This document shows positions 8,496 to 60,552 of a stretch of 64,000 nt of DNA, one piece after another; within the stretch, counting starts at the first letter, position 1, and every line of letters starts with the position of its first letter. The translations under genes and the position numbers were made by a program. The stretch is from the sequence record OZ035800.1, one strand, 5' to 3'. The DNA comes from Felixounavirus LF82P5. The notes under the pieces are model-generated. The model did not search any database and was not told the origin of the DNA. It saw only the letters and a program-made list of their open reading frames with translations.

Positions 8496-8756
8496 TCACT
8501 CAATAACCGTAGTATGTGATTGTCCATTTTTGCCATAGCTGTAAGATGTTGTTGTTTGAGAGTTTGGACATCTGACAACAACAATATCTCTGCTTATAGC
8601 ATCACCATGTAACTTGTATACTCTGCAATCTTGCATCTCTGGTGGGAGGCTATAAGAAGCATTTTTATCTTCATAAGAAGGGTTGCAGCCAGATAGAAAA
8701 ATAACACCAAGCGCAATTACCACTTTCCACATAACACTACTCCTATTACTGTTCAC
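8496..8756 (-). CDS. putative lipoprotein
   Basis: Signal sequence with lipobox VIFLSGC. Confidence 0.45.
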   Translation of the reverse strand: MNSNRSSVMWKVVIALGVIFLSGCNPSYEDKNASYSLPPEMQDCRVYKLHGDAISRDIVVVRCPNSQTTTSYSYGKNGQSHTTVIE

Positions 8757-8901
8757 GATGTTCTACTTCTCTGTACGTTCGTCGATAGTATATAATAAGC
8801 TGTGCTAACTCGTTGCTTTTAACATCTGAACGTAGCAGTTGCCAATCAAAACCTTTACCGACTCTTCCATATAAACTAAACAGTTTTACTTTGCGTTTCA
8901 T
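8746..8901 (-). CDS. hypothetical small protein
   Basis: Track ORF trimmed to an internal Met to avoid overlap with the upstream gene. Confidence 0.3.
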   Translation of the reverse strand: MKRKVKLFSLYGRVGKGFDWQLLRSDVKSNELAQLIIYYRRTYREVEHREQ

Positions 8902-8917
8902 TTTGGTATACCAATAC

Positions 8918-9145
8918 TCAGAAGTCAATATTAATACGTTCGCCCTTAAGGACTCCAGTACGGTCTCTTGCAATCTTGCCGTCAACAATAAGGATATGTG
9001 CAGCCCTTAAAGAGTCACTATTAAAAGCTTTTACGAACTTACTAGGCATCACTACAATGGGCATCTCCTGAATCAACTCTGGAGTATAGCAATTGTCGTG
9101 AAGTTGCTGAATAACGTCTGCAAGTGTCATTTTTGATGTCTCCAA
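8918..9145 (-). CDS. hypothetical protein
   Basis: 75-aa ORF in operon context. Confidence 0.4.
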   Translation of the reverse strand: METSKMTLADVIQQLHDNCYTPELIQEMPIVVMPSKFVKAFNSDSLRAAHILIVDGKIARDRTGVLKGERINIDF

Positions 9146-9336
9146 TACTCAATGTCAATAAGTTCTTGTGCAATGCTTTTAAGGTTACCTTTCAAGAAAA
9201 CCTTCTCAGAACCTGAAAGAGATGAATTGTCAATTAACCTGTTCATTCTCTCAAACAACTTCTGCTTACGATTTTTGATAGTCTCCTTTGAAGCACCTTT
9301 CATCATTGCTGCATGGGTTCTTCCACGATGGCTCAT
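9127..9336 (-). CDS. hypothetical protein
   Basis: 69-aa basic ORF. Confidence 0.4.
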   Translation of the reverse strand: MSHRGRTHAAMMKGASKETIKNRKQKLFERMNRLIDNSSLSGSEKVFLKGNLKSIAQELIDIEYWRHQK

Positions 9337-9387
9337 AATCCCTCCTATACAAGATGTAGTATAAGGTACTCTTCCCTGAGCACCTTG

Positions 9388-9903
9388 TCAACTTAGTTTT
9401 GCAAACTCTCCGTGGAGTTTAATAGCAGCTTCACAGTAAGCTTTATGGGCTTCTTCTTCTGTTGTGTATGTTCCTATATGTATGGTCTTGCCATTATGGT
9501 TAATCTGGGCTATCCACTTACCAGACTTGCTTCTACTTGTGCCTTTTAAGTTTTTTGATGTTCTAGGTTGTCTCCTATTAGACATGTTCTGCTCTTTTGT
9601 GGCCTCTCTTAGATTGTCCCAAGCGTTATTCAAACCATCTCCATCTTTGTGGTCAATGTGTTTATCAGGCCACTTACCTGTCATCCAGAACCAAGCAATT
9701 CGGTGATTGCCTGTCCTGTATCCTAAAATCTGTGTGTGCATATACACACCAGACCTTGTGCGCTTAATTGCTCCGGCTTGGCTTCCAATAACCACCCTAC
9801 TACTATGTGGAGGTCTGCCAATCCATGTTAAGACCCCTGTTTCGGGGTCATAATCTAACCAAGACTTTAACTGTTCATGTGTGAATCCACAATCTCTCAT
9901 CAA
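9388..9903 (-). CDS. HNH homing endonuclease with AP2 DNA-binding domain
   Basis: HNH motif HIDHKDGDGLNNAWDNLREATKEQN; C-terminal AP2-like GKWIAQINHNGKTIHIGTYTTEEEA; 4-nt overlap with the polymerase gene. Confidence 0.8.
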   Translation of the reverse strand: MMRDCGFTHEQLKSWLDYDPETGVLTWIGRPPHSSRVVIGSQAGAIKRTRSGVYMHTQILGYRTGNHRIAWFWMTGKWPDKHIDHKDGDGLNNAWDNLREATKEQNMSNRRQPRTSKNLKGTSRSKSGKWIAQINHNGKTIHIGTYTTEEEAHKAYCEAAIKLHGEFAKLS

Positions 9904-12599
9904 TGCACCTCATACCAGCTCTTACCAACCTTACCTGTGCCAGTTACAAGCGTCTCACTCTTCAAACCTAAATTCTTAGATGCCTGACCATACATCCAGT
10001 CAGTTATGGCTTTAACTTCTTGAGTCATACTTTCTGGGCATTCCCAACTGTTTTCATCGTGGTATGCCAGCAAAAGCCTAGCACCGATTGCTGGTTTTCG
10101 TCCATTTAATTTTGTCAACCCTTCTTCACATGCTCTTCTACAAGCAAGGTTAATTGCCTCATTTTGAATCTGAGCCTCCGAACCCATAAGCAAATAATTC
10201 AATAACTTATGTGGAGATTTACACCACAACCAAGCTCCAGCAACCTTTACAAAACCCCCTTTAGAGATTGCAGCAGTCTTACCAAACACCTCTTCAAGTG
10301 CCTTTTTAGTTGCTTTGTAGTCAGCTTCCAAGTCATCTAGCAGCTTCTTAATTTTAGGCAAACGAATAAAGTAAGTCTGTTTAGTCAGCGCACCTTCCTG
10401 AGTAGTTGCAGCTTTAATCGTCTTAGCAAACTTCTCATCACCTGCACCGAACAGTAGTGCATAGATACCATTCTTAGCTTTCTTACGACCTTTGCTAATC
10501 TCATGAAGAAGATTCTCATCCTGAGTAGCTCGACAAGTCAAGATATCCTGCTCATCATTCAAGCTAAAGTAAATACTGTTCAGTGTATGTGCATCAGTCC
10601 CTGAATAGACAACGTACAGGTCATTCTCAGAGTCATAACGAAGGTACTTATCAATCTCTGGGTTGAGGTACTCATCAAAGTGTTTGCAGTAATAGCGTCC
10701 ATCTTCTTGACGAATAAACTCAATCTCTTCTTTACCTTGCGTTACCGCTTTGGTGAACTCTTTATCACCCATAAAGTTACAAAGAAGAACTAGCTGGGCT
10801 GAGTTCATATCTACAGAGACAACGTTAGTACCTTCCTCACAAATCCACACTGCCCTCATTGGTTCCCCATAGACAGCAGCACCAGACGGTACGTTTACAA
10901 TACCATATTGTGTCATACGTCCAGTTGAAGTACCAAATACCATTGCACCAGCACTAAGGCGACCATCTGGACGAATCTGGTTCAGCCAACCTTTCTCGTC
11001 ATCCTTTGAGTTCTCAATAGTTCTGCGTCGGTGCATCAAAGTATAGTACTTAGCAATCTTCTGTCCAAGCTCACCTTCAATCGTATCATAAGATGATTCA
11101 GTAAGTTTTGGTGAAGTACGGATTAAGCAAGGTTCAAGCAAATCTGTGTATTTCTTCACAGACCAGTTATGCTCGATGTACTGTACACCTTCATGTTCAA
11201 CATAACTCAAACCACACCGCTCAACCATTTCCTGCCACTTAGGATGCTTTGTAATCATCTTTTTATTGTCTTTGAAACGACAAACTTTGACAGGGCGACC
11301 ATCTGAGTCTTTCTTGTAGTTCCAGTCATCTGGAATCCAACCAACTGATTTCAAGTAGTCTTTAACAACTGCTACCTGAGTCATACGAGAAACTTCAAAC
11401 TCAATTGGTGTATATGGTGCATCAATCAAACCTGTGTAGCGACTTGACTCAAGTTCAAAGTGGTTAACAACATGACTGTTATAGTACTTCACAGTTTTGA
11501 CTGTTTTTACTGGCTTCCAGTCTTTGCATTTCTTACCAATCTTTGCGTTCAACTCATTGCAAATTGCACGAGCATCCTTCATTGCTACAAAACCTTCCTT
11601 GTACTCTTCACCAGTTACAGAGTTGGTTGGTGTATAGCAATTTCTCTTTTCAATGTTAAAAATCTTTGTAGTTGGTTTACCAAATGGCTTGATTTCGTAT
11701 GTCTGCATCTCACCGTTACGCACCTGCTGACGGTACTTTGTCTTAGGGTACTTGGTAATTCTCTTCAGTCCATCTGCATGACCAAATGTTTCAACATACT
11801 CATTCCAAGCTTTTGCAAACTCTTCTCCAGTCACTTTACCTTTGGTCTTAATAGTTGGTGGAAGGTGTGGTTCAACTTCTGAAGCAAGCTCATTAGTCAA
11901 CTTGTCAAGCTCCTTTACATGGAACTCCATAAGCTCCTTATCAGCTTTCCAACCATTGATAGCTTGTTGACTCATCCAGAAAGATGTTTCTTTAGCTCGC
12001 ATGTAGGTTTCATAAGTATCTACGCCACACTTCTTCAGCTTGAGATATTCATTATCCAGTGCACGTTTAGTTTTGGCGTTAATACGGATATCTTCTACAA
12101 CACGAGTGAAGATTTCTGCATTCCAAACACCCCAATGCTCAATCTCTGGCTTACGAACACCAACACGAGCACCCCATGCAGCCAAGCCATGAGCACCCTT
12201 ATAACCTTTTGGGGTTGGTCTATCCATCCACTGAACACGAGACTGGATAAGAGAATCCTGAAAGAAATTACTCCACGGTTTACACTTTGGATTATCAAAG
12301 TTCCACAAATCAGGTGCAATGTGATTGAAAACCCACCAGTCATAACCCAGACCATTATGGATGCAAAGTCGTTTTGCCTTTAACGCAAACTCAATACCTT
12401 CACGTAAACCGCCTTTGATGTACTTGGTGTATTTGTGACCGAGGATAGGCTCATCTGTAAAGACCCATACAGGTGGCTCTTCATCGTCAGATTTATAGTC
12501 TGCGAAAGCCATTACGTGCACTTTAGTGAACTCAAGGAGTAAACCATCAGTTTCTGTATCACCAACTAAATGTAAGTTTTTAAAATCTATGTTTTCCAT
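9900..12599 (-). CDS. DNA polymerase, family A, with 3'-5' exonuclease domain
   Basis: Exo I DTETDG; Pol A motif A DMNSAQLVLL, motif B RKKAKNGIYALLFGAG, motif C YHDE; start placed at ATG 12599 with GAGGGAG Shine-Dalgarno (track start 12629). Confidence 0.85.
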   Translation of the reverse strand: MENIDFKNLHLVGDTETDGLLLEFTKVHVMAFADYKSDDEEPPVWVFTDEPILGHKYTKYIKGGLREGIEFALKAKRLCIHNGLGYDWWVFNHIAPDLWNFDNPKCKPWSNFFQDSLIQSRVQWMDRPTPKGYKGAHGLAAWGARVGVRKPEIEHWGVWNAEIFTRVVEDIRINAKTKRALDNEYLKLKKCGVDTYETYMRAKETSFWMSQQAINGWKADKELMEFHVKELDKLTNELASEVEPHLPPTIKTKGKVTGEEFAKAWNEYVETFGHADGLKRITKYPKTKYRQQVRNGEMQTYEIKPFGKPTTKIFNIEKRNCYTPTNSVTGEEYKEGFVAMKDARAICNELNAKIGKKCKDWKPVKTVKTVKYYNSHVVNHFELESSRYTGLIDAPYTPIEFEVSRMTQVAVVKDYLKSVGWIPDDWNYKKDSDGRPVKVCRFKDNKKMITKHPKWQEMVERCGLSYVEHEGVQYIEHNWSVKKYTDLLEPCLIRTSPKLTESSYDTIEGELGQKIAKYYTLMHRRRTIENSKDDEKGWLNQIRPDGRLSAGAMVFGTSTGRMTQYGIVNVPSGAAVYGEPMRAVWICEEGTNVVSVDMNSAQLVLLCNFMGDKEFTKAVTQGKEEIEFIRQEDGRYYCKHFDEYLNPEIDKYLRYDSENDLYVVYSGTDAHTLNSIYFSLNDEQDILTCRATQDENLLHEISKGRKKAKNGIYALLFGAGDEKFAKTIKAATTQEGALTKQTYFIRLPKIKKLLDDLEADYKATKKALEEVFGKTAAISKGGFVKVAGAWLWCKSPHKLLNYLLMGSEAQIQNEAINLACRRACEEGLTKLNGRKPAIGARLLLAYHDENSWECPESMTQEVKAITDWMYGQASKNLGLKSETLVTGTGKVGKSWYEVH

Positions 12600-12658
12600 T
12601 TTTACTCCCTCTAAAATCATTAACCTCATACATTACTGCAAAAAATTATAAAAAGCAA

Positions 12659-12683
12659 GTTGACAATGTACTTGACAAGGTGT
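12659..12683 (+). promoter_or_regulatory. conserved tandem-TTGACA module (candidate early promoter or operator)
   Basis: GTTGACAATGTACTTGACAAGGTGT; 24 of 25 nt identical to 56049-56073; both sit in divergent intergenic regions. Confidence 0.45.
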
Positions 12684-12857
12684 TAATCTTTGCGAAGTGG
12701 GTTTTTACTTAAAAGGTTACTTAACAGTTTAACTATACAGATACTTTAAAACTCTTAAAAGATTATTTAATAGCTTTTTAAAAAGCTTTAAAGTATAACG
12801 TATAGAATACGTTAAGATAAAAGATTAAAACTTAATAGTTACTTAAAAGAGGCTTAC

Positions 12858-13280
12858 ATGCAGAAAATGTTTGTTCACCCAGACATAGCTGACTTTGTTA
12901 GAGCTTTGCAGAAGTTGGAAGAACTTGACATTGCTGCTCAACGGGAATATGCTCACCATCACAGGAGAATGGTTGATATACAACATGAAATAGAGTTGTC
13001 TGAAGACTATGAAGATGACTTAAAATGCTCTGTATTTGAGCATATGAAAGATGTTGCTACAGCGAGACGTAAAGCTAAAGACACAGTTGCTTTACTAGAT
13101 TCTCTTAAAAAGAGGTTGCAAAGTGGTACAGACCTGTGTAATCTAGCATCACTGATTAACGATGTTGAAACTTCTTGGGATAGGCACTATTATCCACGTT
13201 CTGAAAAGACACTTGACTTTTCTTCATCCGAAAACTTAAAATGTTCTAGAAAGAAACTTAACCAACTGAGAGAGAAATAA
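12858..13280 (+). CDS. hypothetical protein
   Basis: 140-aa ORF, first gene of the plus-strand block. Confidence 0.5.
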   Translation: MQKMFVHPDIADFVRALQKLEELDIAAQREYAHHHRRMVDIQHEIELSEDYEDDLKCSVFEHMKDVATARRKAKDTVALLDSLKKRLQSGTDLCNLASLINDVETSWDRHYYPRSEKTLDFSSSENLKCSRKKLNQLREK

Positions 13281-13281
13281 T

Positions 13282-14082
13282 ATGAATATCGATGTAGAAA
13301 AGATGCTTGAAGAGAAAGGTGTTGATGAAGCATTCTTAATCAATGCCGTAGAAAGCATGGCTATGATTCTTCGTGGTAATAACTACACAGAACAGTTTAT
13401 GCCTGCAAGCTATAACTTGCCTGAAGACAAGTCTGATAACGGTGCTTTTGCAGAACAGGTTAATATGATGTTGACAGACACTACACTTGCTCTGGCATCT
13501 ATTGCGGTTGGTGTTGATGCACTTGCTGAGTTCATTTTTTATGAAATGCAAAAGAATGACTATATCAGGATGTCAGACGAAGATAAGGAACTGTTGCTGA
13601 CTAAGGACACAGATTTCATTATTGATACGCTTATCTCATCAACGAGTGCTGTTATGGCTGCTCTTGAGAAGCGAATGGAAGAGAAGCTGTCACGATATGA
13701 AAAGCTTGATTGGGGTGTAGAGGAATTAAACCCACGAATCAAAGAGATTATCCAGCAAACCAAAGATTCTTTGGAAGAAGCTGTAAAAAATGATTCTGTA
13801 GCTGACATAGAACCACTTCAGGTGAAAGTTGCATTGATGATTCCAGCCATCTCTACGATGATGAATATCGTTGCACTAATCCAGCTTTCACAGATGATGG
13901 GCACAAGCATTGAGTTCATTGAGAGTATGACTGGTGGTGTTAGTATGCAAGCAATCAATGATGTTCTGGTGAGCATTGGTGCTTCAATCATTGAAGAGAA
14001 GCTTCGCATTAACTTTGGTGATGATTTTGTGAAGCAAATCTCAGCTATGGCTGAAAAAGAGTCTGCTGAGCAACTGCACTAA
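13282..14082 (+). CDS. hypothetical protein
   Basis: 266-aa acidic ORF, 1-nt spacing to the upstream gene. Confidence 0.5.
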   Translation: MNIDVEKMLEEKGVDEAFLINAVESMAMILRGNNYTEQFMPASYNLPEDKSDNGAFAEQVNMMLTDTTLALASIAVGVDALAEFIFYEMQKNDYIRMSDEDKELLLTKDTDFIIDTLISSTSAVMAALEKRMEEKLSRYEKLDWGVEELNPRIKEIIQQTKDSLEEAVKNDSVADIEPLQVKVALMIPAISTMMNIVALIQLSQMMGTSIEFIESMTGGVSMQAINDVLVSIGASIIEEKLRINFGDDFVKQISAMAEKESAEQLH

Positions 14083-14098
14083 GTCTTTATAAATCTTA

Positions 14099-14124
14099 CA
14101 AGCCTCCTTAGTTGGGGGCTTTTT
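14099..14124 (+). terminator. rho-independent terminator
   Basis: AGCCTCC-6 nt-GGGGGCT hairpin followed by TTTTT. Confidence 0.5.
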
Positions 14125-14143
14125 AGTAATTAAGGGAGATAAA

Positions 14144-14887
14144 ATGAGTAATATTATCGCATTTACTGGAAAGGCACGCTCTGGAAAAGACACCTCATGT
14201 TCTATTGTGAAGAACATCTTAGAGGATGAGTACGGCTACAATGTTGCTGTAATGGCCTTTGCAGACAACCTTAAACTGTCTGCATCAAAGATATTTGACC
14301 TGACTTGGAATGACCTGTATGGTGAAACTAAAGAGACTCCACAGGTATTTGACTTATCATATCCTGAACTGATGTTTAAAGTTACGGAAGCTATGGAGTT
14401 CACCTTCAGAGATGAACGTTACCATATGGACTTCAAGCTTATGTCAGAGTTAACCGGACGATTAATCATGGAGCTTAAGAAGGTTGCTAAACCTACCCTA
14501 TTAACACGTCTGGGATTTAGTAAAAAGTATAAATTCTCATCAAGACAAATTCAACAGATTTGGGGTACTGAAGTTGTCCGTAAAGTAATGGGCGACAAGT
14601 TCTGGTCTAAAGACCTTGAAAAAAGAATGGTTAGATTCCATGAAATGTGCTCACTTAGAAATCAATATGGTTTTGTCTTAATCAGTGATTTAAGATTTGA
14701 CTCTGAAGCTGAATGGCTGAGTAGATTTGCACACCAAACTATTGAAGTAAAAAGAGACAATGTGGACAAAGTTTCATCACATGTTTCAGAAAATGGGATT
14801 TCTACAAAATATGAGCGTGACATTATTCATAATAATGGTACTCTTGCAGACCTTGAGAACAAGCTAAGAGCCATCATTAAAGTTTAA
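14144..14887 (+). CDS. deoxynucleoside monophosphate kinase
   Basis: N-terminal P-loop FTGKARSGKDT, closely resembling the T4 gp1 dNMP kinase N-terminus (SGVKRSGKDT). Confidence 0.65.
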   Translation: MSNIIAFTGKARSGKDTSCSIVKNILEDEYGYNVAVMAFADNLKLSASKIFDLTWNDLYGETKETPQVFDLSYPELMFKVTEAMEFTFRDERYHMDFKLMSELTGRLIMELKKVAKPTLLTRLGFSKKYKFSSRQIQQIWGTEVVRKVMGDKFWSKDLEKRMVRFHEMCSLRNQYGFVLISDLRFDSEAEWLSRFAHQTIEVKRDNVDKVSSHVSENGISTKYERDIIHNNGTLADLENKLRAIIKV

Positions 14888-14895
14888 AAGAGAGA

Positions 14896-15096
14896 ATGAA
14901 GATGAGAGTAAAAGACAATTTTAAAGTTATTGACCACCGTTTAGTGGAACTCTCATCTCTTTCCAATGAGGTAATGATTGAACGTCTTAAGAGAGTTGAA
15001 TCACGAAGGAAAGAGATTGCAGATGAAATTCATGAACTGGACAAGATTGAAAATGGATTGAAGGCAGAACTACAACGAAGAGGTGCTAATGTCTAA
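14896..15096 (+). CDS. hypothetical coiled-coil protein
   Basis: 66-aa charged ORF. Confidence 0.4.
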   Translation: MKMRVKDNFKVIDHRLVELSSLSNEVMIERLKRVESRRKEIADEIHELDKIENGLKAELQRRGANV

Positions 15097-17074
15097 GGGT
15101 CGTAAATTGAAAGAGGCTGGTCAGTTTGTTGGTCATTGCGCATGTCCACGTTGTGGTTCATCAGATGCTGGTTCAATCTATCATCATGACGATGGTTCTT
15201 ATTCAATGACTTGCTTTAGTTGTAACAAAGGTTTCCCAGAGTGGGATTTTGATAAAGGACAAATCGTGAGCACTTATTCTACTGGTTCAGACAATAAAAA
15301 CCGTACTTTCCGTGGAATGGATTTAGACGATGTGAAAGAAAACCTTGAAGCAATGGACTTAAAGGACAGGAAGATTCCTGCAAAAGTTCTTGAGCGTTTG
15401 GGTATCAAGGTTGACATTGACAGTGATGGTGAAATTGACGCGCATTTCTACCCAACTTACAAACGCAATGAAGATGGCAAGCTAGAGCATGTTGGCTACC
15501 GTGTTCGTCACCGTTACCCAGAAGACCATCCAAAAGAGCACCTACGAGGTAAGTTAAAAGACTTTTCTGGTGGTGTTGGAGACATTAAAGGTGAACTGGC
15601 AATGTTCGGTTCATGGATTGCTCCAGAAGGTGGTAACCGTCTATTCATCTGGGAAGGTGAGATGGAATGTGCGACAGCAATCTATATGACTTCTCTTGCG
15701 ATTAAGGACAAATCTCGTCGTAAGAATTACTGTCACGTATCTGTTCCATCAGGTGCAAACATCAAGTCTATCAAGGATAACTATCAGTACATTACATCAT
15801 TTGATGAGATTTACTTGTGCTTTGATAACGATGAAGCAGGTGCTAAAGCCACTAAAGAGGCTGCTGGTATCCTACCTATTGAGAAGGTTCGTTTATTCCA
15901 GTATCCAGAAGGTGTAAAAGACCTTAACGAGTGGTGGACAAAGTTCTATAAAGAAAAAGATACAGTTCTGGAAGGATTTAAGCAGCGTATCTACAATGCA
16001 CCCCGTTACTGCCCTGCTGGTATCAAGAACTTCGCAGATGGTTTTGAGGCAATGAAGAATCGTGGTCAGATTCCATTGATTCCTTTCCCAGAATCTTTCG
16101 GAGATTTGAACAGACTGACTTATGGCGGTTATGGTTTAGGTGAGATTACAACTATTGCAGCACCATCTTCAGTAGGTAAGTCAGCTTACACTCGTGAGAT
16201 GATTTACTCAGCTTGGAAAGAAACTGATTATAATATCGGTGTAATTCCTGTAGAAGATACCTATGAAGAGTTGATGGAGATGCTCTGTGCAATCCACCTG
16301 AGCAAGCAGATTTCTGAGATTCCTTATGACGAACGTGATTGGGATGAATTGAAGAAGGCACACGCAGAACTGTCTAAAGGTCGTCGTATCCACATCGTTG
16401 ACCATCAAGGGGCAATTGACCAAGATAACTTGCTGGAGTTTGTTGACTATCTTGTTAACAGCTTAGACTGTAAGATTATTATTCTTGACCCTATCACGTT
16501 AGCCCTGTCACGTTCTGATACGGATGAAGAAGAAGTTTTGTCTGAGCTATTGCGTCGTTGCAAACGCTACCAGTATGCGCAGGTAAACGTATGTCACGTT
16601 CGTAAGAGTGCAGGCGGTCAGAAAGCTAACTCTGAAGGTGGAGATATCTCTGAAGAGGATATCAAAGGTTCTGGTGCGTATTTTCAGATTTCTATGAACA
16701 ACATTCTGTTAATGCGTAACAAGGTTGACCCAGACCCTGTTAAGAAAAACTTGACAAAAATCAAGTTAACTAAGTGTCGTCGTCATGGTAAGTCAACAGG
16801 TATTGCTGGTCATACTTGGTACAATCCAGATACAGGCCGTCTTATCAAAGCTTCTGGATGTGGTGTTGATATTGATGGTGCAGCAGAAAATATTCGCCAG
16901 CAGTTTGGTATTGGTGAAGCTGAAGACCATTACGATGACTCTTTGCCACATTATGAGGACGAAGTGTTTGACCGTGAGACTGGTGAAGTCTATACTGAAG
17001 AGCAGCGTCAAAGCTCAACGATTCCACCTGTATTAAGTGAGGATGCAGATGACTGCCCGTTCGAAACTGAGTGA
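15083..17074 (+). CDS. DNA primase/helicase (T7 gp4-like)
   Basis: N-terminal Cys4 zinc ribbon (CPRCGS...CFSCNKG), TOPRIM glutamate and DxD (CFDNDEAG), Walker A APSSVGKS. Confidence 0.85.
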   Translation: MLMSKGRKLKEAGQFVGHCACPRCGSSDAGSIYHHDDGSYSMTCFSCNKGFPEWDFDKGQIVSTYSTGSDNKNRTFRGMDLDDVKENLEAMDLKDRKIPAKVLERLGIKVDIDSDGEIDAHFYPTYKRNEDGKLEHVGYRVRHRYPEDHPKEHLRGKLKDFSGGVGDIKGELAMFGSWIAPEGGNRLFIWEGEMECATAIYMTSLAIKDKSRRKNYCHVSVPSGANIKSIKDNYQYITSFDEIYLCFDNDEAGAKATKEAAGILPIEKVRLFQYPEGVKDLNEWWTKFYKEKDTVLEGFKQRIYNAPRYCPAGIKNFADGFEAMKNRGQIPLIPFPESFGDLNRLTYGGYGLGEITTIAAPSSVGKSAYTREMIYSAWKETDYNIGVIPVEDTYEELMEMLCAIHLSKQISEIPYDERDWDELKKAHAELSKGRRIHIVDHQGAIDQDNLLEFVDYLVNSLDCKIIILDPITLALSRSDTDEEEVLSELLRRCKRYQYAQVNVCHVRKSAGGQKANSEGGDISEEDIKGSGAYFQISMNNILLMRNKVDPDPVKKNLTKIKLTKCRRHGKSTGIAGHTWYNPDTGRLIKASGCGVDIDGAAENIRQQFGIGEAEDHYDDSLPHYEDEVFDRETGEVYTEEQRQSSTIPPVLSEDADDCPFETE

Positions 17075-17330
17075 TAGCTATAAAAGAGAGGGGTTCACAC
17101 CCTTCTTTGAAGAAAAAAGTTTAAATAAATTTCATGAAGAGTGTTTGACAAAGATTGATAGGTTCTATAGAATGCTCCACATGAAATGCGATGGAGAAGT
17201 TGAAATAGAACAACAGTTCCATCAAAGTATGATTACAGTCATCATTACACTGCCTCAGCATAATATTGGTTGGCTGTTTATAATGAAAGAAAATGTGTTT
17301 GAATATCAAGTATATCGGAGAATATCATGA
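17037..17330 (+). CDS. hypothetical protein
   Basis: 97-aa ORF overlapping the primase-helicase 3' end; ATGA overlap with the next small ORF. Confidence 0.3.
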   Translation: MRMQMTARSKLSDSYKREGFTPFFEEKSLNKFHEECLTKIDRFYRMLHMKCDGEVEIEQQFHQSMITVIITLPQHNIGWLFIMKENVFEYQVYRRIS

Positions 17331-17476
17331 AACACTCTAAAGCATTTGAAAAAGTTTTTGGGGATTCCTTAAAAGCCACTGCTGGAAAACCAGCAAAATA
17401 CTATGAAGAAAAACGTGTAAGAACTGGAAAAACTGCACGTAAAGCAGCTTCTAAAGATAAGCACAACTTCCAGTAA
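17327..17476 (+). CDS. small basic protein
   Basis: 49-codon ORF (MKHSKAFEKVFGDSLK...) with GGAG Shine-Dalgarno; below the ORF-track size cutoff. Confidence 0.3.
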   Translation: MKHSKAFEKVFGDSLKATAGKPAKYYEEKRVRTGKTARKAASKDKHNFQ

Positions 17477-17548
17477 TTAGTATTTGACAATAGAGTATCA
17501 ACAAATTAGAATTGGTACTCTTCATAAATTGAGATAGAGGTTTAAATA

Positions 17549-18406
17549 ATGTCTAAAGTTGTTAAAATGAAAGCTCCGGTAGAGAAGTACAACGGTACTG
17601 AACGTCAAACTCTGCGTTACCTGCTGAAAGATGTCTGGTTTTATTACCTGAACACTTCACCACGTCCGGGTAAAGGTAAATCTATTGACAAGAAATTCCC
17701 AGGAAAAGATTGTAACTACAGCGTATCAATTCTGGCAGAAGACGGTAACAAACTCTTTAAAGAGTTTACTAAGTCTAAGAAGAACCCAGAAGGTTGGGAT
17801 AAAGTTACTACTGAAGCAGTTGATGCAGATGACTTCGAAGAGAAGTTTGGTTGCAAACCACCTTTTGAAGCAGACACTTACTACATCTTGAAAGTAAGTC
17901 GTGCAGCAGCTTATAAAGATGGTGCTGTATGGACAGCTAAACAGTCATTCCCTGTAATGCTGATTGAAGAAGTAAACGGTAAACGTGTAGCTGTTAAACA
18001 GCCGATGAAGAAAATCAAAGCTCAAGCATCTGATAAGCATGAAGATGATAAGAACTATGATGTAATTCATCCAGATATTGCAGTTGGTAACGGTTCTTTT
18101 GGTAGTGTGATTCTTTCTACTCACTTCTACACTTTTGAGAACAATGTTCTGACTAAACCTATTCAGGAACAGTTTATCATTGATACTCTTGTACCTTACA
18201 CTGGTGGTAACGGTGCTAATGGTGAACCTGAACTGGATGAAGATGAACTGGCTATGCTTGGTCTTGATGGTGTCGAAGATAACGGTGAAATCACTGAAGA
18301 AGACGCAACAGACCATAAATCTTCGAATGATTCTGATGATGGTGATGATGAAGATTTGCCAGACCCAGATGACGAAGAGGATGAAGACTTCGATACAGAA
18401 GACTAA
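17549..18406 (+). CDS. single-stranded DNA-binding protein (T7 gp2.5-like)
   Basis: 285 aa with a long acidic C-terminal tail (DDGDDEDLPDPDDEEDEDFDTED); sits between primase-helicase and exonuclease. Confidence 0.55.
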   Translation: MSKVVKMKAPVEKYNGTERQTLRYLLKDVWFYYLNTSPRPGKGKSIDKKFPGKDCNYSVSILAEDGNKLFKEFTKSKKNPEGWDKVTTEAVDADDFEEKFGCKPPFEADTYYILKVSRAAAYKDGAVWTAKQSFPVMLIEEVNGKRVAVKQPMKKIKAQASDKHEDDKNYDVIHPDIAVGNGSFGSVILSTHFYTFENNVLTKPIQEQFIIDTLVPYTGGNGANGEPELDEDELAMLGLDGVEDNGEITEEDATDHKSSNDSDDGDDEDLPDPDDEEDEDFDTED

Positions 18407-18421
18407 TCTCTAAAAGTTACT

Positions 18422-18452
18422 TTAAAGCCCTGTACTTAGTATGGGGCTTTTT
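18422..18452 (+). terminator. rho-independent terminator
   Basis: AAAGCCC-13 nt-GGGCTTT hairpin followed by a T run. Confidence 0.45.
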
Positions 18453-18468
18453 CATATGGAGAGCCATA

Positions 18469-19515
18469 ATGGAGAAGTACACATTAACAAAACTTCCCGA
18501 TTCAGTTACACATGTTTTTATTGACTCTGACAGCATTGCTTATAAAGGTGCTTGTGTAGTTGAGAAAGCAAAATATAAATACGTCAATAAACTCACAGCA
18601 GAAGAATCTGAACCATTTGACAATGCGAAAGATGCTGCAAGATGGTTAGCAGACCAGAGAATCCTTGTGGAAGAACTTGGCCTGACATTTGATGAAGATG
18701 AATGGGAAAGACAGACTTGGAAAGAAGCTAAGAGTGAAAAAGAAGCTATCATGGCTACTCAACAGGTGCTTCAGGAATGGCTTAAGATTGTTGGTAAAGA
18801 AAGAACTTGGGTAGGTTATTTAACAGAGAAAGGTGTGCATAAACATAAAGACATTAAAGGTCTTGAGCACCAATATCAAGGTAACCGTAAAGATGCTGTC
18901 ACACCAACACACTTAGTCGCTTGTCGTGAATACCTTCTGTCAAGACCAGAGTTCAAACTAATTCTTGATGGATTTGAAGCCGATTCTATCGTTATTGCTA
19001 AAGCTGAAAAGATGGGTAAAAAGGCTGCCTTGATGAGTATTGATAAAGACCTTCGCCAAGCTGAAGGGACTTACTGCATTGATATGACCTATGAAAAGTC
19101 GCCTTTGATTTTCATTGCTGACAACAACGTAGGTGAAATTTGGGATTGCCCAATAAAATCAACACCAAAAGCTAAGAAGACAGTTGGTGTAGGTTTTAAA
19201 TTCCTTTGTTATCAAGCTGTGGCTGGTGACAATGCTGATAATTATTTTGGTTTAAAGGGTGTTGGTAAGGCTACTGTAATGAAAGCCCTTGAAGGTAAAA
19301 ATACTTATAAAGAGTGTCTTGATGCTATCTATGAACTTTATGCTAAGAAAGAGTCATACACTTATGTATCATGGGATGGTCAAACAATTACCAGAACACC
19401 TTTAGAGTTAATGCAGCAACACTTTTTCTTAGCTTATCAGGAAAGAAACAAGAAAGACGATTTCACTTTTGATAAGTATGGGTGGACACCAAATGTTAAC
19501 TCAACAAACTCTTAA
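18469..19515 (+). CDS. 5'-3' exonuclease (T7 gp6 / FEN-like)
   Basis: Motifs SIDKDLRQ and QAVAGDNADNYFGLKGVG match the T7 gene 6 signatures (SCDKDFKT, KGDITDGYSGIAGWG). Confidence 0.7.
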   Translation: MEKYTLTKLPDSVTHVFIDSDSIAYKGACVVEKAKYKYVNKLTAEESEPFDNAKDAARWLADQRILVEELGLTFDEDEWERQTWKEAKSEKEAIMATQQVLQEWLKIVGKERTWVGYLTEKGVHKHKDIKGLEHQYQGNRKDAVTPTHLVACREYLLSRPEFKLILDGFEADSIVIAKAEKMGKKAALMSIDKDLRQAEGTYCIDMTYEKSPLIFIADNNVGEIWDCPIKSTPKAKKTVGVGFKFLCYQAVAGDNADNYFGLKGVGKATVMKALEGKNTYKECLDAIYELYAKKESYTYVSWDGQTITRTPLELMQQHFFLAYQERNKKDDFTFDKYGWTPNVNSTNS

Positions 19516-19993
19516 AGAATACCTGCACTATGACCCCGAAACAGGGGTCTTTACTTGGTTAGTTGGTAGAAGAGGTAAGGCCAAAGCTGGCTCAGTAGCA
19601 GGTCTTAAACACCATAGTGGTTATATCTATATAAAACTCTTCGGAAAAAGATATGCAGCACACAGACTGGCATTCTTGTATATGAAAGGCTACCTCCCAA
19701 AATTTGTTGACCACAAGAATGGTATCAGGCACGACAACTGGTTCGACAATTTGAGAGAGTGTAGCAGGTCAGACAACAACTGCAATGCAGTCAAAAGAAA
19801 AGATAATAAGTCTGGTGTGAAGGGTGTATATTACCACAAGCAAAGAGGTAGATGGGCTGCACAAGTCAAGCATAATAAAGTATGCTACCATCTAGGTTTA
19901 TTTGACTCTATCACTGAGGCTGAATCAGTTGTCAAAAAGAAAAGAGAAGAACTACATAAAGAGTTTTCAAATCACGGAGAAGCTTATGAATGA
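19469..19993 (+). CDS. HNH homing endonuclease with AP2 domain
   Basis: HNH motif VDHKNGIRHDNWFDNLRE...DNNCN; AP2-like GVKGVYYHKQRGRWAAQV; N-terminal YDPETGV motif shared with 9388..9903. Confidence 0.8.
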   Translation: MISMGGHQMLTQQTLKEYLHYDPETGVFTWLVGRRGKAKAGSVAGLKHHSGYIYIKLFGKRYAAHRLAFLYMKGYLPKFVDHKNGIRHDNWFDNLRECSRSDNNCNAVKRKDNKSGVKGVYYHKQRGRWAAQVKHNKVCYHLGLFDSITEAESVVKKKREELHKEFSNHGEAYE

Positions 19994-20487
19994 AGATTAA
20001 AGGATTTGGCAATTGCCCTACCTATGGTCATTGGGTGTCTTTATGTGGGGAAGTTGACCCCACTAAACATTTTGGCTTTGTCTATTTAGTGCACTGTAAG
20101 AAGACTGGACAATATTATATCGGAAAGAAACAGCTTAACAGTGTGACCAAAAGAAAAGTTGCTGGGAAGACTCGGAAGAAGGTAGTCACTAAGGAAAGTG
20201 ATTGGATGACTTATGAGACTTCTTCCGAGTATATTAAAAAAGATATTGAGAGCTTTGGAAAAGAATTTTTTGACTTTTACATTATTCAGACCTACTACAC
20301 AAAAGGTGGCCTAGTCTATGGTGAAGCAAACCTTCAACATAAATTCGATGTAATGACAAAAAGGATTGACTCGAAGCTCAGACTCTTCTACAATGCCAAT
20401 ATTGCAGCAATTAAGTTTATCACTAAAGAAACTTATGAAGATGCTGAAAAAAGAATCCATAAGGTAATGAAAGCAAATTGTGCTTGA
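19990..20487 (+). CDS. possible GIY-YIG-like nuclease
   Basis: FVYLVHCKKTGQYYIGKK fits the G-I-Y...Y-I-G spacing with an Arg about 10 aa later; weak. Confidence 0.35.
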   Translation: MKIKGFGNCPTYGHWVSLCGEVDPTKHFGFVYLVHCKKTGQYYIGKKQLNSVTKRKVAGKTRKKVVTKESDWMTYETSSEYIKKDIESFGKEFFDFYIIQTYYTKGGLVYGEANLQHKFDVMTKRIDSKLRLFYNANIAAIKFITKETYEDAEKRIHKVMKANCA

Positions 20488-20508
20488 TAACTATTGAGAG
20501 AGAATAAA

Positions 20509-20739
20509 ATGTTTAACAAAAGCAAAGCTGTGAGTCATGTAGCAAAAGTTGACAGCAAGATTGAAGAACTTGAGCGCATCCTTGCAAATGCTAGAGAGTC
20601 AATAATCAAAGAAGTTGAAGCTGTTGAATCTCAAATGCAGCACCTAATGCTTAAACGTCAAGAGCTACGTGAGCATCTAGAATATATTGAAACACGAGAG
20701 CTAAAAGTTAACAGATTTTTAAGGAGTCCAAATGTTTAA
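20509..20739 (+). CDS. hypothetical coiled-coil protein
   Basis: Track start 20494 is TTG; moved to ATG 20509 with GAGAG Shine-Dalgarno. Confidence 0.45.
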   Translation: MFNKSKAVSHVAKVDSKIEELERILANARESIIKEVEAVESQMQHLMLKRQELREHLEYIETRELKVNRFLRSPNV

Positions 20740-21487
20740 CTCAAGAGAAGCAGTAAAAAACTGGAATCTTCGTTGTGGAAACACTCAAAAGCAACCTTAC
20801 AGTTATGAGTATTGGGAATCTTTAAAATCCCAGTCTCTGTGTATGCTGGAAGAAGCAAAAGAGCTTGTAAAAGCAATTGAAGAGAAAGACCCCATTGAGA
20901 CACTGGATGCTCAGGCAGATTTGCAATATGTTCTTGATGGTCTGATTTATCTGTCACAACATGACCATAACGGTGCTATGAAAGCTGTTTGCCATAATAA
21001 TGACCTGAAGTACACAGATGACTATGAAGAAGCTTTAAAACGTCTTGCAGACATTGAAAAGCGTACTGGTCAAGAGTGTGTTATCAGAATGTCAGTAGTT
21101 GATGGTAAAGAGTGGTATGCGATTGTCCGTGCAGCCGATGGGAAGATTATGAAGCAATCAAATCTCCCTAAAGTACAGCTTGGTGAATACATTGTAGAAC
21201 TTGAAAGCCAAGAACTTTTTGTGGTAGTATCTGAGACATGCGTTATCTGCAAAGGTATTGTAGGTAGCTTAAAGGATTTGGGTGTAGATGGTTTTGTAGA
21301 AGTTAATCCAATTACCTCTAAAGCAGATAAAGATTTCTGTAAAGAGAATGGACTATGGATTGCAGATATTATCTACTATGATGGTGAGCAGTTCCATGTA
21401 ACCTCATACCCGAAACTGAATTATGATGCTAATAACCTGAAGTGTTGGTTAAAAGGGGTTGGTTATAATGGATTCACAGAACATTAA
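20732..21487 (+). CDS. MazG-like nucleotide pyrophosphohydrolase domain protein
   Basis: N-terminal EExxE...E.LD..ADL pattern (LEEAKELVKAIE...ETLDAQADLQYVLDGL). Confidence 0.35.
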   Translation: MFNSREAVKNWNLRCGNTQKQPYSYEYWESLKSQSLCMLEEAKELVKAIEEKDPIETLDAQADLQYVLDGLIYLSQHDHNGAMKAVCHNNDLKYTDDYEEALKRLADIEKRTGQECVIRMSVVDGKEWYAIVRAADGKIMKQSNLPKVQLGEYIVELESQELFVVVSETCVICKGIVGSLKDLGVDGFVEVNPITSKADKDFCKENGLWIADIIYYDGEQFHVTSYPKLNYDANNLKCWLKGVGYNGFTEH

Positions 21488-21791
21488 TAAAGAGGGTGTG
21501 GCTCAGAAGAGCCACTTCTCAAACTACAATATTTCTATGACGGTGTTTATGAATGACCCGTTACTAGAAAAATATGGTGAGACTCCAGATACACTTCTGG
21601 ACAATGAACAAGTTTTAAAAGCAGTCCTGTACAAATATGGGATTGATATTGAGAAAGAGTATTCTTTTGAAATCTGCCAACACAGAAATACTTTTGGGAA
21701 AGTTGTAATGGCTCCACTCTTCATGGGTGTAGAAAGGACTGACTATGGTTGGTTATATCTAAAAAGAAACTTGGAGAAATACCGTGTCTAA
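21459..21791 (+). CDS. hypothetical protein
   Basis: 110-aa ORF. Confidence 0.4.
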   Translation: MVIMDSQNINKEGVAQKSHFSNYNISMTVFMNDPLLEKYGETPDTLLDNEQVLKAVLYKYGIDIEKEYSFEICQHRNTFGKVVMAPLFMGVERTDYGWLYLKRNLEKYRV

Positions 21792-30692: not shown

Positions 30693-31208
30693 ATGTATCT
30701 GTCAAACCTGAAACGTTCGGTTGCAATGTCAGTTCTAAGACTCAGCTTTGATGAGCGTCAAGAGTTTATAGACTCCCACAAATATGACCCTTCAAATTCT
30801 AATCACATGGTTCTTTGGAATCGTGATAACTTCCGTGAAAGAGCACTTGTCCGTTATTACCCACACTACACAATAGATAACCTGTATGAATGGTGTGTTG
30901 TGAAGAACACCATTGCAACACTGAACAATCTTTGCAGGTATACGGGTAAGCAAACATTTACATTAGGTCATCACAAACCTGTTACAAAAGGTGGTGAACA
31001 TCACTGTGCAAACTGGTTTATCCAAACTAAAACTGATAACCAGAAGCAAGGAGATAGCCTCCTAAGTATCCCTAAGATGACCTATGAAGAGCAAGAGAAA
31101 TATATCAAAAATAATATGCCAGATGTGCTTGACAACAACTATACAGATTTGGCAATATCTCTCCTGTTGAAGTTCGAGACAGTTTATAGGGCAACTTATA
31201 ATGGCTAA
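30693..31208 (+). CDS. HNH-like endonuclease
   Basis: TLGHHKPVTKGGEHHCANWFIQTKTDNQKQGD resembles HNH (His-His...Asn...Asn) nuclease motifs. Confidence 0.45.
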   Translation: MYLSNLKRSVAMSVLRLSFDERQEFIDSHKYDPSNSNHMVLWNRDNFRERALVRYYPHYTIDNLYEWCVVKNTIATLNNLCRYTGKQTFTLGHHKPVTKGGEHHCANWFIQTKTDNQKQGDSLLSIPKMTYEEQEKYIKNNMPDVLDNNYTDLAISLLLKFETVYRATYNG

Positions 31209-40138: not shown

Positions 40139-40160
40139 AGGCTCCTTCGGGAGCCTTTTT
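40139..40160 (+). terminator. rho-independent terminator
   Basis: AGGCTCC-TTCG-GGAGCCT hairpin followed by TTTTT. Confidence 0.65.
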
Positions 40161-60147: not shown

Positions 60148-60552
60148 ATGAAACTTTGTAGAAAATGTTCTCAAGAAAAGCCTTTAAGCTGCTTTCATAA
60201 AAGAGGTAATGGCTATCAGTCTGCTTGCAAAGATTGTAAAGCTAAGTACTCAGCAAAGAGATACAAAGAAGACCCTACTTATAAAGCAAAAAGAAAAGTT
60301 AGGGCGAAATATGACAAAAAGAGGAACAGAGAGTTCCTTAGTAGATATAAAAAGTTTTGCAAATGCAGAATATGTGGCGAATCTGAGCCAGTAGCTTTGG
60401 ATTTTCATCACTTAGACCCTAAAGAGAAAGATTTTGCTCCAAGCAATCTTAAGACTTACTCTAGAGGCACTATTAAGCGTGAAGTCCGTAAGTGTGTTGT
60501 GCTTTGTTCAAACTGTCATAGGAAAGTTCATGCAGGACTGTTAAGTATTTAA
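60148..60552 (+). CDS. HNH endonuclease embedded in the tRNA array
   Basis: 134 aa; Cys-rich zinc-binding N-terminus and HNH core DFHHLDPKEKDF...CSNCHRKVH. Confidence 0.7.
   Translation: MKLCRKCSQEKPLSCFHKRGNGYQSACKDCKAKYSAKRYKEDPTYKAKRKVRAKYDKKRNREFLSRYKKFCKCRICGESEPVALDFHHLDPKEKDFAPSNLKTYSRGTIKREVRKCVVLCSNCHRKVHAGLLSI

Follow-up and report, generated by a model that had tools for sequence, protein, structure and literature searches.

A conserved stem-loop written into rare codons of HNH-AP2 homing-endonuclease genes of Felix O1-like phages, a putative RNA attenuator

Two paralogous homing-endonuclease genes of Felixounavirus LF82P5 carry, near their 5' ends, the same 23 nt of DNA, and within it a perfect hairpin. 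Both lie in the 64,000-nt stretch of record OZ035800.1 analysed here (the window), one (HNH1) directly behind the gene for a family A DNA polymerase and the other (HNH2) directly behind the gene for a 5'-3' exonuclease. The stem of this hairpin is under nucleotide-level constraint across all alleles of these genes. We give roughly even odds to the reading that the stem-loop is a putative RNA attenuator, weak terminator or 3'-end structure that would limit expression of the endonuclease; that RNA is the level of the constraint, and termination or attenuation its effect, we infer from sequence. The elements concerned are the following.

9388..9900, minus strand: HNH1, a free-standing HNH_3+AP2 homing-endonuclease gene of allele family A (Pfam, PHROG 99)
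9830..9852, minus strand: copy 1 of the 23-nt segment, TAT GAC CCC GAA ACA GGG GTC TT, an exact match encoding YDPETGV of HNH1
9832..9849, minus strand: hairpin 1, a perfect inverted repeat with stem GACCCC/GGGGTC and a 6-nt loop
19493..19993, plus strand: HNH2, a free-standing HNH_3+AP2 homing-endonuclease gene of allele family B (Pfam, PHROG 99)
19529..19551, plus strand: copy 2 of the 23-nt segment, an exact match encoding YDPETGV of HNH2
19532..19549, plus strand: hairpin 2, a perfect inverted repeat with the stem and loop of hairpin 1

The initial annotation had reported the 23-nt identity, and TATGACCCCGAAACAGGGGTCTT was indeed located exactly at the two places listed; no third match occurs in the window at up to 3 mismatches, and none was found in 100 shuffles. 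In both open reading frames (ORFs) the segment codes for Y-D-P-E-T-G-V plus TT, near the N terminus, and it contains the hairpin GACCCC-GAAACA-GGGGTC, as had been noted. In each hairpin the 18 central bases form a 6-bp stem, with 5 of its 6 pairs G-C, and a 6-nt loop. The peptide YDPETGV(F/L)TW, encoded at 9832-9852 and 19529-19558, comes close in sequence to chignolin (GYDPETGTWG), a designed mini-protein that forms a very stable beta-hairpin turn; a turn of this kind would presumably account for the deep amino-acid conservation, and the same bases would then code for one hairpin in the protein and another in the nucleic acid.

The initial annotation had allowed that the shared segment might be explained by codon constraints, and with this we weigh the possibility that the identity arose by chance or simply follows from the conserved peptide. 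YDPETGV is a deeply conserved motif of the protein family, with relatives in 2,814 phage records, and is encoded in a relative on 428 IMG/VR stretches. However, the identity exceeds codon expectation. The genome has 39% G+C and prefers T-ending codons; in the window CCC makes up 2.5% of proline codons, GGG 6.5% of glycine codons and GTC 10% of valine codons, with GAC at 37%. Given identical amino acids, the probability that two genes use the same 7 codons is 0.0034, and the probability that both use exactly these rare codons is about 5e-11. Outside the motif, HNH1 and HNH2 have 48 identical residues with degenerate codons and agree in the codon at 20 of them, which is the chance level, and therefore synonymous sites are saturated. 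Homologues elsewhere, moreover, write the motif with all codon combinations. Codon constraint and chance are thus excluded as sources of the identity, and we leave this explanation practically no credence.

An exact search of IMG/VR with the 18-mer recovered several more divergent HNH-AP2 genes, on 81-94-kb contigs of 39% G+C. Because such a search finds the hairpin by construction, we anchored a census on the flanking host genes instead: the sites were defined via conserved flanking genes, blind to codons, in 32 related contigs for the polymerase and 28 for the exonuclease. The post-polymerase site was filled in 18 of the 32 contigs and empty in 14, and the post-exonuclease site held an HNH-AP2 gene in 12 of the 28, with a GIY-YIG gene directly after the exonuclease in the other 16. 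At both sites the insertion is the ORF alone; HNH2 has insertion boundaries at about 19484-19984, and its insertion altered the C terminus of the exonuclease. The presence/absence comparison proposed in the initial annotation thus finds both HNH1 and HNH2 to be sporadically present at a fixed site between conserved genes.

Together with the two genes of the window, the census copies gave 28 distinct sequences, which fall into 8 families at 80% amino-acid identity; between families, DNA identity of the cores is 25-65%. The pattern GAC CCC ... GGG GTC is present in 29 of the 30 census copies, spanning all 8 divergent allele families and the two loci. The single exception, on an IMG/VR contig resembling phage Si3 (L359), is an HNH2-type gene in which the C4 run is one C short (GACCC-GAAACAGGGGTC), causing a frameshift; the deletion could reflect a real pseudogene or a homopolymer sequencing error. 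In the GenBank entry for Si3, two hypothetical proteins are annotated at the place of the frameshifted gene.

What varies around the arms sets their constancy in relief. We found five versions of the loop, all protein-changing: GAAACA (ET), GATACA (DT), GAAATA (EI), TTAACA (LT) and GACAAA (DK). Within family A, three codons touching the 18-mer differ synonymously (TAT/TAC, TTA/TTG, ACA/ACT), and none within the 18-mer itself. Among the 28 sequences, an amino acid with degenerate codons is invariant in 26 alignment columns; 21 of these use 2-5 codons and five use a single codon, namely the 4 stem codons and one catalytic Asp. The probability that all 4 stem columns fall there is 3.3e-4.

A 36-nt query containing the hairpin matched 265 places in 212 GenBank phage records, including Felix O1 (70394-70429 of AF320576), and nearly all among the matches listed fall under HNH-endonuclease annotations. 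Five low-identity matches were examined individually. In Michonne, Meda and PHB11 the stem is intact, with mismatches outside it. In GE_vB_NS7 (L385, an UNVERIFIED assembly) both arms have homopolymer-length differences, C5 and G3, which are probably sequencing errors, and the Guernseyvirinae phage Shemara is without the hairpin. DNA with about 93-100% identity to Felix O1-like phages also turned up in GU169904 (Staphylococcus phage SA1) and MG065664 (Campylobacter phage A132), two records that are probably mixed or mislabelled assemblies.

The initial annotation had suggested either recent gene conversion or selection on the nucleotide sequence itself. The second suggestion stands: the arms are invariant in all census copies save the frameshifted one, while the loop and adjacent synonymous sites vary. 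The first is not supported, because a contiguous conversion tract would not leave identical arms around differing loops; neither contiguous identity over unselected sites nor identity specific to one genome was found. The identity must also be old, because the same 18 nt occur in orthologues of both genes across many phages and genera.

Recombination among these endonuclease genes does nevertheless occur. The post-polymerase alleles (families A, D, E and F) are nearly base-identical over their last 56-70 nt, with cores 25-60% identical; exact runs within this 3' block reach 56 nt (A vs D) and 33+30 nt (A vs E).

9388..9456, minus strand: 3'-terminal block of HNH1, common to post-polymerase alleles A, D, E and F

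The 3'-terminal block is not in empty sites. HNH1 is found at full length in 49 GenBank phage records, and many GenBank records match the HNH1 query at positions 443-512 only. At the exonuclease site, alleles B, C and C' have identical DNA from upstream through the hairpin to TTTACTTGG, covering the first ~66 nt, and are 25-45% identical thereafter; B and C' also have common 3' ends. Shared end blocks with divergent cores point to cassette-like replacement of the cores.

Such exchange raises the question of whether concerted evolution by itself, in which repeated short conversions keep the patch identical and the patch has no function of its own, would suffice. Shared end blocks and mosaic alleles do reveal recombination among these genes, and gene conversion associated with homing endonucleases is common in large phages (bioRxiv 10.1101/2021.03.08.434280). 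But the arms are identical around loops that differ at 1-3 positions, and the flanking codons vary; the patch is too short, and its flanks too dissimilar, for homologous exchange confined to 18 nt; the identity is old, occurring in orthologues of Felixounavirus, Suspvirus-like and Mooglevirus phages; and the complementarity and rarity of the fixed codons would be left unexplained. We consider this explanation very improbable.

We then consider the hairpins as structures. Hairpin 1 starts at +52 nt in HNH1, about 50-51 nt past the polymerase stop codon; its fold has -12.9 kcal/mol (z -4.0) and forms in both the local and the 146-nt contexts. Hairpin 2 starts at +40 nt in HNH2, with 16 nt separating the exonuclease stop codon from the stem, and its fold has -12.6 kcal/mol (z -4.2) and likewise forms in isolation and within 146 nt. 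The 146-nt folds are not better than those of shuffles (z -1.0 and +0.1), and a larger conserved RNA structure was rejected, the 6-bp stem alone being common to the two. A known RNA family was likewise rejected, as Rfam gave zero matches in 9300-20600 at E up to 1, and so was programmed frameshifting, as inspection by eye found neither hairpin to be preceded, at a suitable distance, by a slippery heptamer. Enrichment of a restriction site or half-site was rejected too; the window has only 4-5 occurrences of GACCCC and as few of GGGGTC, without pattern.

The neighbourhood of the two genes is as follows.

9900..12629, minus strand: family A DNA polymerase, the gene upstream of HNH1 (Pfam DNA_pol_A; annotated as DNA polymerase in relatives)
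18469..19515, plus strand: 5'-3' exonuclease, the gene upstream of HNH2 (weak Pfam 5_3_exonuc match; annotated as exonuclease in relatives)

The initial assignment of both downstream genes to the HNH-AP2 type is borne out: each has an HNH_3 domain followed by an AP2 domain, by Pfam together with PHROG 99 (4e-64 for HNH1 and 6e-76 for HNH2). For HNH1 the Pfam matches are HNH_3 at 1.3e-14, above cut-off, and AP2 at 2e-09 (38.1 bits vs a 33.3-bit cut-off); for HNH2 they are HNH_3 at 1e-12, above cut-off, and AP2 at 2.2e-07 (31.5 bits, just under the 33.3-bit cut-off), and HNH2 aligns with HNH1 across the AP2 region. In the pairwise comparison the two proteins were 37% identical, and the DNA outside the motif was roughly half-identical. 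The likely start of HNH1 is the ATG at 9900, which overlaps the polymerase stop (TGATG at 9898-9902), and that of HNH2 is the ATG at 19493, giving a 23-nt overlap with the 3' end of the exonuclease gene (19493-19515); the TTG starts of the ORF list are less likely for both. At its other end HNH2 has a 4-nt overlap with the start of the GIY-YIG gene.

In several Salmonella Felixounaviruses the DNA polymerase is annotated as two coding sequences, and the matching region is about 800 bp longer; for these two reasons, a further insertion, either an endonuclease gene or an intron, is suggested inside the polymerase gene of those phages.

The GIY-YIG gene is a second, unrelated nuclease gene with an analogous early hairpin. 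The ORF at 19990..20487(+), put forward in the initial annotation as a possible GIY-YIG gene, is SegE-like (Pfam SegE_GIY-YIG 9.4e-28, 97.4 bits vs a cut-off of 25), and it occurs beside the exonuclease in 28 of 28 related contigs, at filled and empty sites.

20045..20063, plus strand: hairpin 3, GTGGGG-AAGTTGA-CCCCAC, a perfect 6-bp stem 56 nt from the GIY-YIG ATG

Hairpin 3 uses the rare codons GGG and CCC (C-G-E-V-D-P-T), and in empty-site phages it lies about 50 nt past the exonuclease stop. Across orthologues 97% of cells are paired, and one pair is U-A in 5 sequences vs C-G in 6; one orthologue has a mismatch (CCA), and another a shortened stem.

How might such an element work? We propose that the shared segment is a stem-loop acting in cis and spelled out by the codons for a conserved turn of the protein, with D-P-x-x-G-V encoded as GAC CCC nnn nnn GGG GTC. 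The endonuclease genes lie directly behind essential replication genes, with overlapping start codons, and for this reason would most probably be transcribed by read-through. A G+C-rich RNA hairpin would then form about 17-51 nt past the upstream gene's stop codon and act as a leaky intrinsic terminator, an attenuator or a structure protecting the 3' end, whereby the essential upstream message would gain a structured end and the nuclease message would stay scarce. A promoter scan found nothing strong promoter-like directly upstream of the endonuclease genes, although sequence cannot prove the absence of a promoter. A promoter in the shared 3' block, as in mobE, was rejected, since no site passes the scan; the TTGACA found at the HNH1 stop is part of the host flank and is without a well-spaced -10.

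We favour an attenuator, weak terminator or 3'-end structure because the architecture is that demonstrated for mobE of phage T4. There, a free-standing HNH gene without a promoter starts at an AUG that overlaps the nrdA stop, and a stem-loop lying 27 nt past the AUG, present only in phages with the gene, terminates about 30% of transcripts (Wilson & Edgell 2009, PMC2790892); a similar 5' terminator is reported for T4 segF (PMC2988022). In both mobE and the present genes, an HNH endonuclease gene of the free-standing kind has been inserted between essential genes, its start overlaps the upstream stop (UAAUGA in T4, UGAUG here), a G+C-rich stem-loop follows a few tens of nt past the AUG (at 27 nt for mobE and at 40 and 52 nt for the present genes), the U-tract is short, and the hairpin accompanies the endonuclease gene, being retained in phages carrying it (here in 29 of 30, the exception being frameshifted). 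The differences are that the mobE stem has 9 bp, a 4-nt loop and a real poly(U), whereas here it has 6 bp, a 6-nt loop and a tail that is weak or not U-rich; that the stem here is written into a conserved protein motif and is identical across 8 divergent allele families and two loci; and that termination was measured there, whereas here the hairpin is known from sequence alone.

Local RNA structure also limits polycistronic homing-endonuclease expression in I-TevI, I-TevII, I-TevIII and segB of T4 and in Aeh1 mobE (Edgell, Gibb & Belfort 2010, PMC2988022). Unlike those hairpins, which cover the Shine-Dalgarno sequence or start codon, the present ones lie 40-52 nt into the ORF, where they cannot block the start. 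By analogy, then, we would describe these genes as ordinary HNH-AP2 free-standing endonucleases whose hairpin is most like the internal terminators of mobE and segF.

Within the window itself, a terminator scan of 8500-21500 listed hairpin 2 first, with the most G-C pairs (6 pairs, 5 GC, 5 T in 8). Its tail is TTTACTTGGT, and that of HNH2-type alleles is UUUACUUGG. Most other perfect GC-rich hairpins of the window are intergenic, just past genes, and several have T-runs; at least one of them, that at 40139-40156, is identical to the rho-independent terminator t5 of Felix O1 (PMC3185647), and the other intergenic ones are alike in style. We also count in favour of an attenuator or terminator the analogous early hairpin of the unrelated GIY-YIG gene, with its compensatory pair change. 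The hairpins resemble the Felix O1 rho-independent terminators (Whichard et al. 2010, PMC3185647, Table 2) in being short and G+C-rich with 4-8-nt loops; the terminators listed there differ in being intergenic with clear T-runs. Because that study considered intergenic sites only, an intragenic hairpin would have gone unreported. In the literature searched, on Felixounavirus and on HNH/AP2/hairpin, we found no description of this hairpin.

Several observations weigh against this reading. First, the U-tract is weak (UUUACUU) in most alleles and essentially absent in families A (UUAACAU) and F (UUCUACA). Hairpin 1, whose tail UUAACAUGG is not U-rich, fails the terminator scan, going unlisted because the tail reads UUAACAU, and allele F, with the tail UUCUACAAC, does not pass it either. 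Second, a 6-bp stem is short for an intrinsic terminator. Third, G-U wobble variants (GAT, CCT, GTT) occur in 0 copies among the 28 distinct sequences, despite the preference for T-ending codons, and their absence fits a DNA-level or sequence-specific constraint equally well as an RNA one. Fourth, the stem pairs never vary, and therefore covariation gives no support for hairpins 1 and 2; the sole compensatory change is that of the GIY-YIG hairpin, which is probably a single event. Fifth, a replacement terminator is not obviously needed, because in phages with an empty site the polymerase stop is already followed by a hairpin.

9363..9386, minus strand: host-flank hairpin AAGGUGCUC-AGGGAA-GAGUACCUU, which folds in the window and in the empty-site locus L333

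This host-flank hairpin has 9 bp, with one G-U pair. In the window it lies directly past the HNH1 stop, and in the empty-site phages (L333, about 1713-1736) directly past the polymerase stop. A perfect TTGACA stands just upstream of it, at the insertion junction.

The strict pairing leads to the possibility that the element acts at the level of DNA, as an 18-bp palindrome working in double- or single-stranded DNA. In one version it would be a crossover point, at which endonuclease cores are swapped between alleles and loci; in another, it would serve as a symmetric operator to which a dimeric protein binds, perhaps a regulator of the phage or the endonuclease itself. Only Watson-Crick pairs are present, with zero G-T variants in the 28 distinct sequences. 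The identity of B, C and C' through the hairpin and TTTACTTGG, followed by divergence, resembles a crossover at that point; all pairs of families have in common an exact run of 18-36 nt with the hairpin at its centre; and the end blocks common to alleles at one site indicate that cassette-like exchange occurs. However, a crossover hot spot results from conservation and does not cause it, and selection for exchangeability would be weak. Among the post-polymerase alleles A, D, E and F, differences begin at the first codon, so that the hairpin is not their left junction. In the GIY-YIG hairpin, pairing was kept via the compensatory change, favouring structure over sequence recognition, and no candidate binding protein was identified. 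We regard a DNA-level element as unlikely. Quite doubtful in our estimation is the specific proposal that the palindrome is a DNA-level part of the mobile element and not an expression signal, serving as a hairpin or cruciform site for strand exchange, for template switching or for binding of a phage factor; if that were true, a recombination or recognition site common to homing-endonuclease genes would lie within their own coding sequence.

A translation-level device has also to be weighed, in which the rarest codons (CCC, GGG, GTC) and the local RNA hairpin at codons 14-23 would together slow early elongation, with the effect of a lower yield of a toxic nuclease made by translational coupling, or of better folding of the N-terminal turn. 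The stem codons are among the rarest of the genome, the element always lies 40-56 nt past a start codon, with starts that overlap upstream genes, and GGG and CCC are found equally far into the GIY-YIG gene. Yet selection for rare codons alone would also accept CCG, GGC or GGA and would not require complementary arms, whereas the complementary set is fixed in all families; GAC is not rare, with its share of 37%; and elongating ribosomes are, as is well established, not stopped by a 6-bp hairpin. This device strikes us as a rather remote prospect.

Beyond the Felix O1-like group, of which many members are 93-97% identical to the window, the hairpin is not a general property of the protein family; we rejected that idea because codons vary freely across the IMG/VR homologues encoding YDPETGV. 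A complete scan for YDPETGVFTW showed that other low-G+C phages write GAT CCT/CCA ... GGT GTT/GTA, and the full stem was present in 0 of 71 other close homologues outside the group. In Erwinia Kolesnikvirus (Omen, L287; SunLIRen, L288) the HNH gene is upstream, not downstream, of the DNA polymerase, lacks the 6-bp hairpin and has a different motif, YNPDTGLFTW or YRKSTGEFIW.

Scattered stem-bearing copies do occur elsewhere, in a 49% G+C group, one 45% G+C contig and some high-G+C phages, where the codons are not rare. The first of these comprises L300, L308, L311, L313 and L315 (30-47 kb), whose HNH-AP2 genes have the same stem with loop GTCACA and YDPVTGVFTW; the 45% G+C contig (L139) has an HNH-AP2 gene with the same stem, loop GAAACA and YDPETGVVTR. 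The stem-bearing HNH-AP2 genes of unrelated phage groups begin a few nt past the upstream stop, and in unrelated phages the identical stem followed by T-runs forms obvious intergenic terminators. The present genes thus resemble phage HNH-AP2 genes at large in their domains, their length of ~170 aa, their sporadic presence at fixed intergenic sites and their N-terminal YDPETG, and differ from them in that the complementary rare codons are fixed only in the Felix O1-like group, with few scattered copies elsewhere.

The initial annotation had named two further HNH-type genes in the window, and one of these holds up. The gene at 60148..60552 is an HNH endonuclease of another family (PHROG 2255, 1.5e-45), with neither the YDPETG motif nor the hairpin. 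That at 30693..31208 was not confirmed: it has no Pfam match, its PHROG match is PHROG 3500 (function not known), and the match to an HNH PHROG is weak (2e-6). Calling it HNH is unjustified, given the empty Pfam result and the weakness of the HNH-like match.

A further hairpin, GTGGCTC-AGAA-GAGCCAC at 21498-21515(+), is perfect and G+C-rich and lies 11 nt past the stop of the gene at 20732-21487, within the first ~50 nt of an overlapping ORF at 21459-21791. Since this hairpin sits inside the start of that ORF, the embedding of terminator-like hairpins at the start of the next ORF may extend beyond endonuclease genes in this phage.

At the level of codons, the D-P-x-x-G-V turn is self-complementary, and in this phage those rare codons have become fixed that give rise to an RNA or DNA hairpin, a case of dual coding. 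Elements of this kind are overlooked by terminator and annotation pipelines restricted to intergenic DNA. The invariant 18-mer is a handy marker of these genes, and the two sites, each of which occurs empty or filled by one of several allele families, lend themselves to the study of endonuclease turnover in a natural system. If the attenuator or weak-terminator reading is true, Felix O1-like phages would be a second, unrelated phage lineage, after T4, in which a hairpin placed just inside free-standing homing-endonuclease genes acts as a brake, and an early hairpin would be a general solution for tolerating selfish nucleases behind essential genes.

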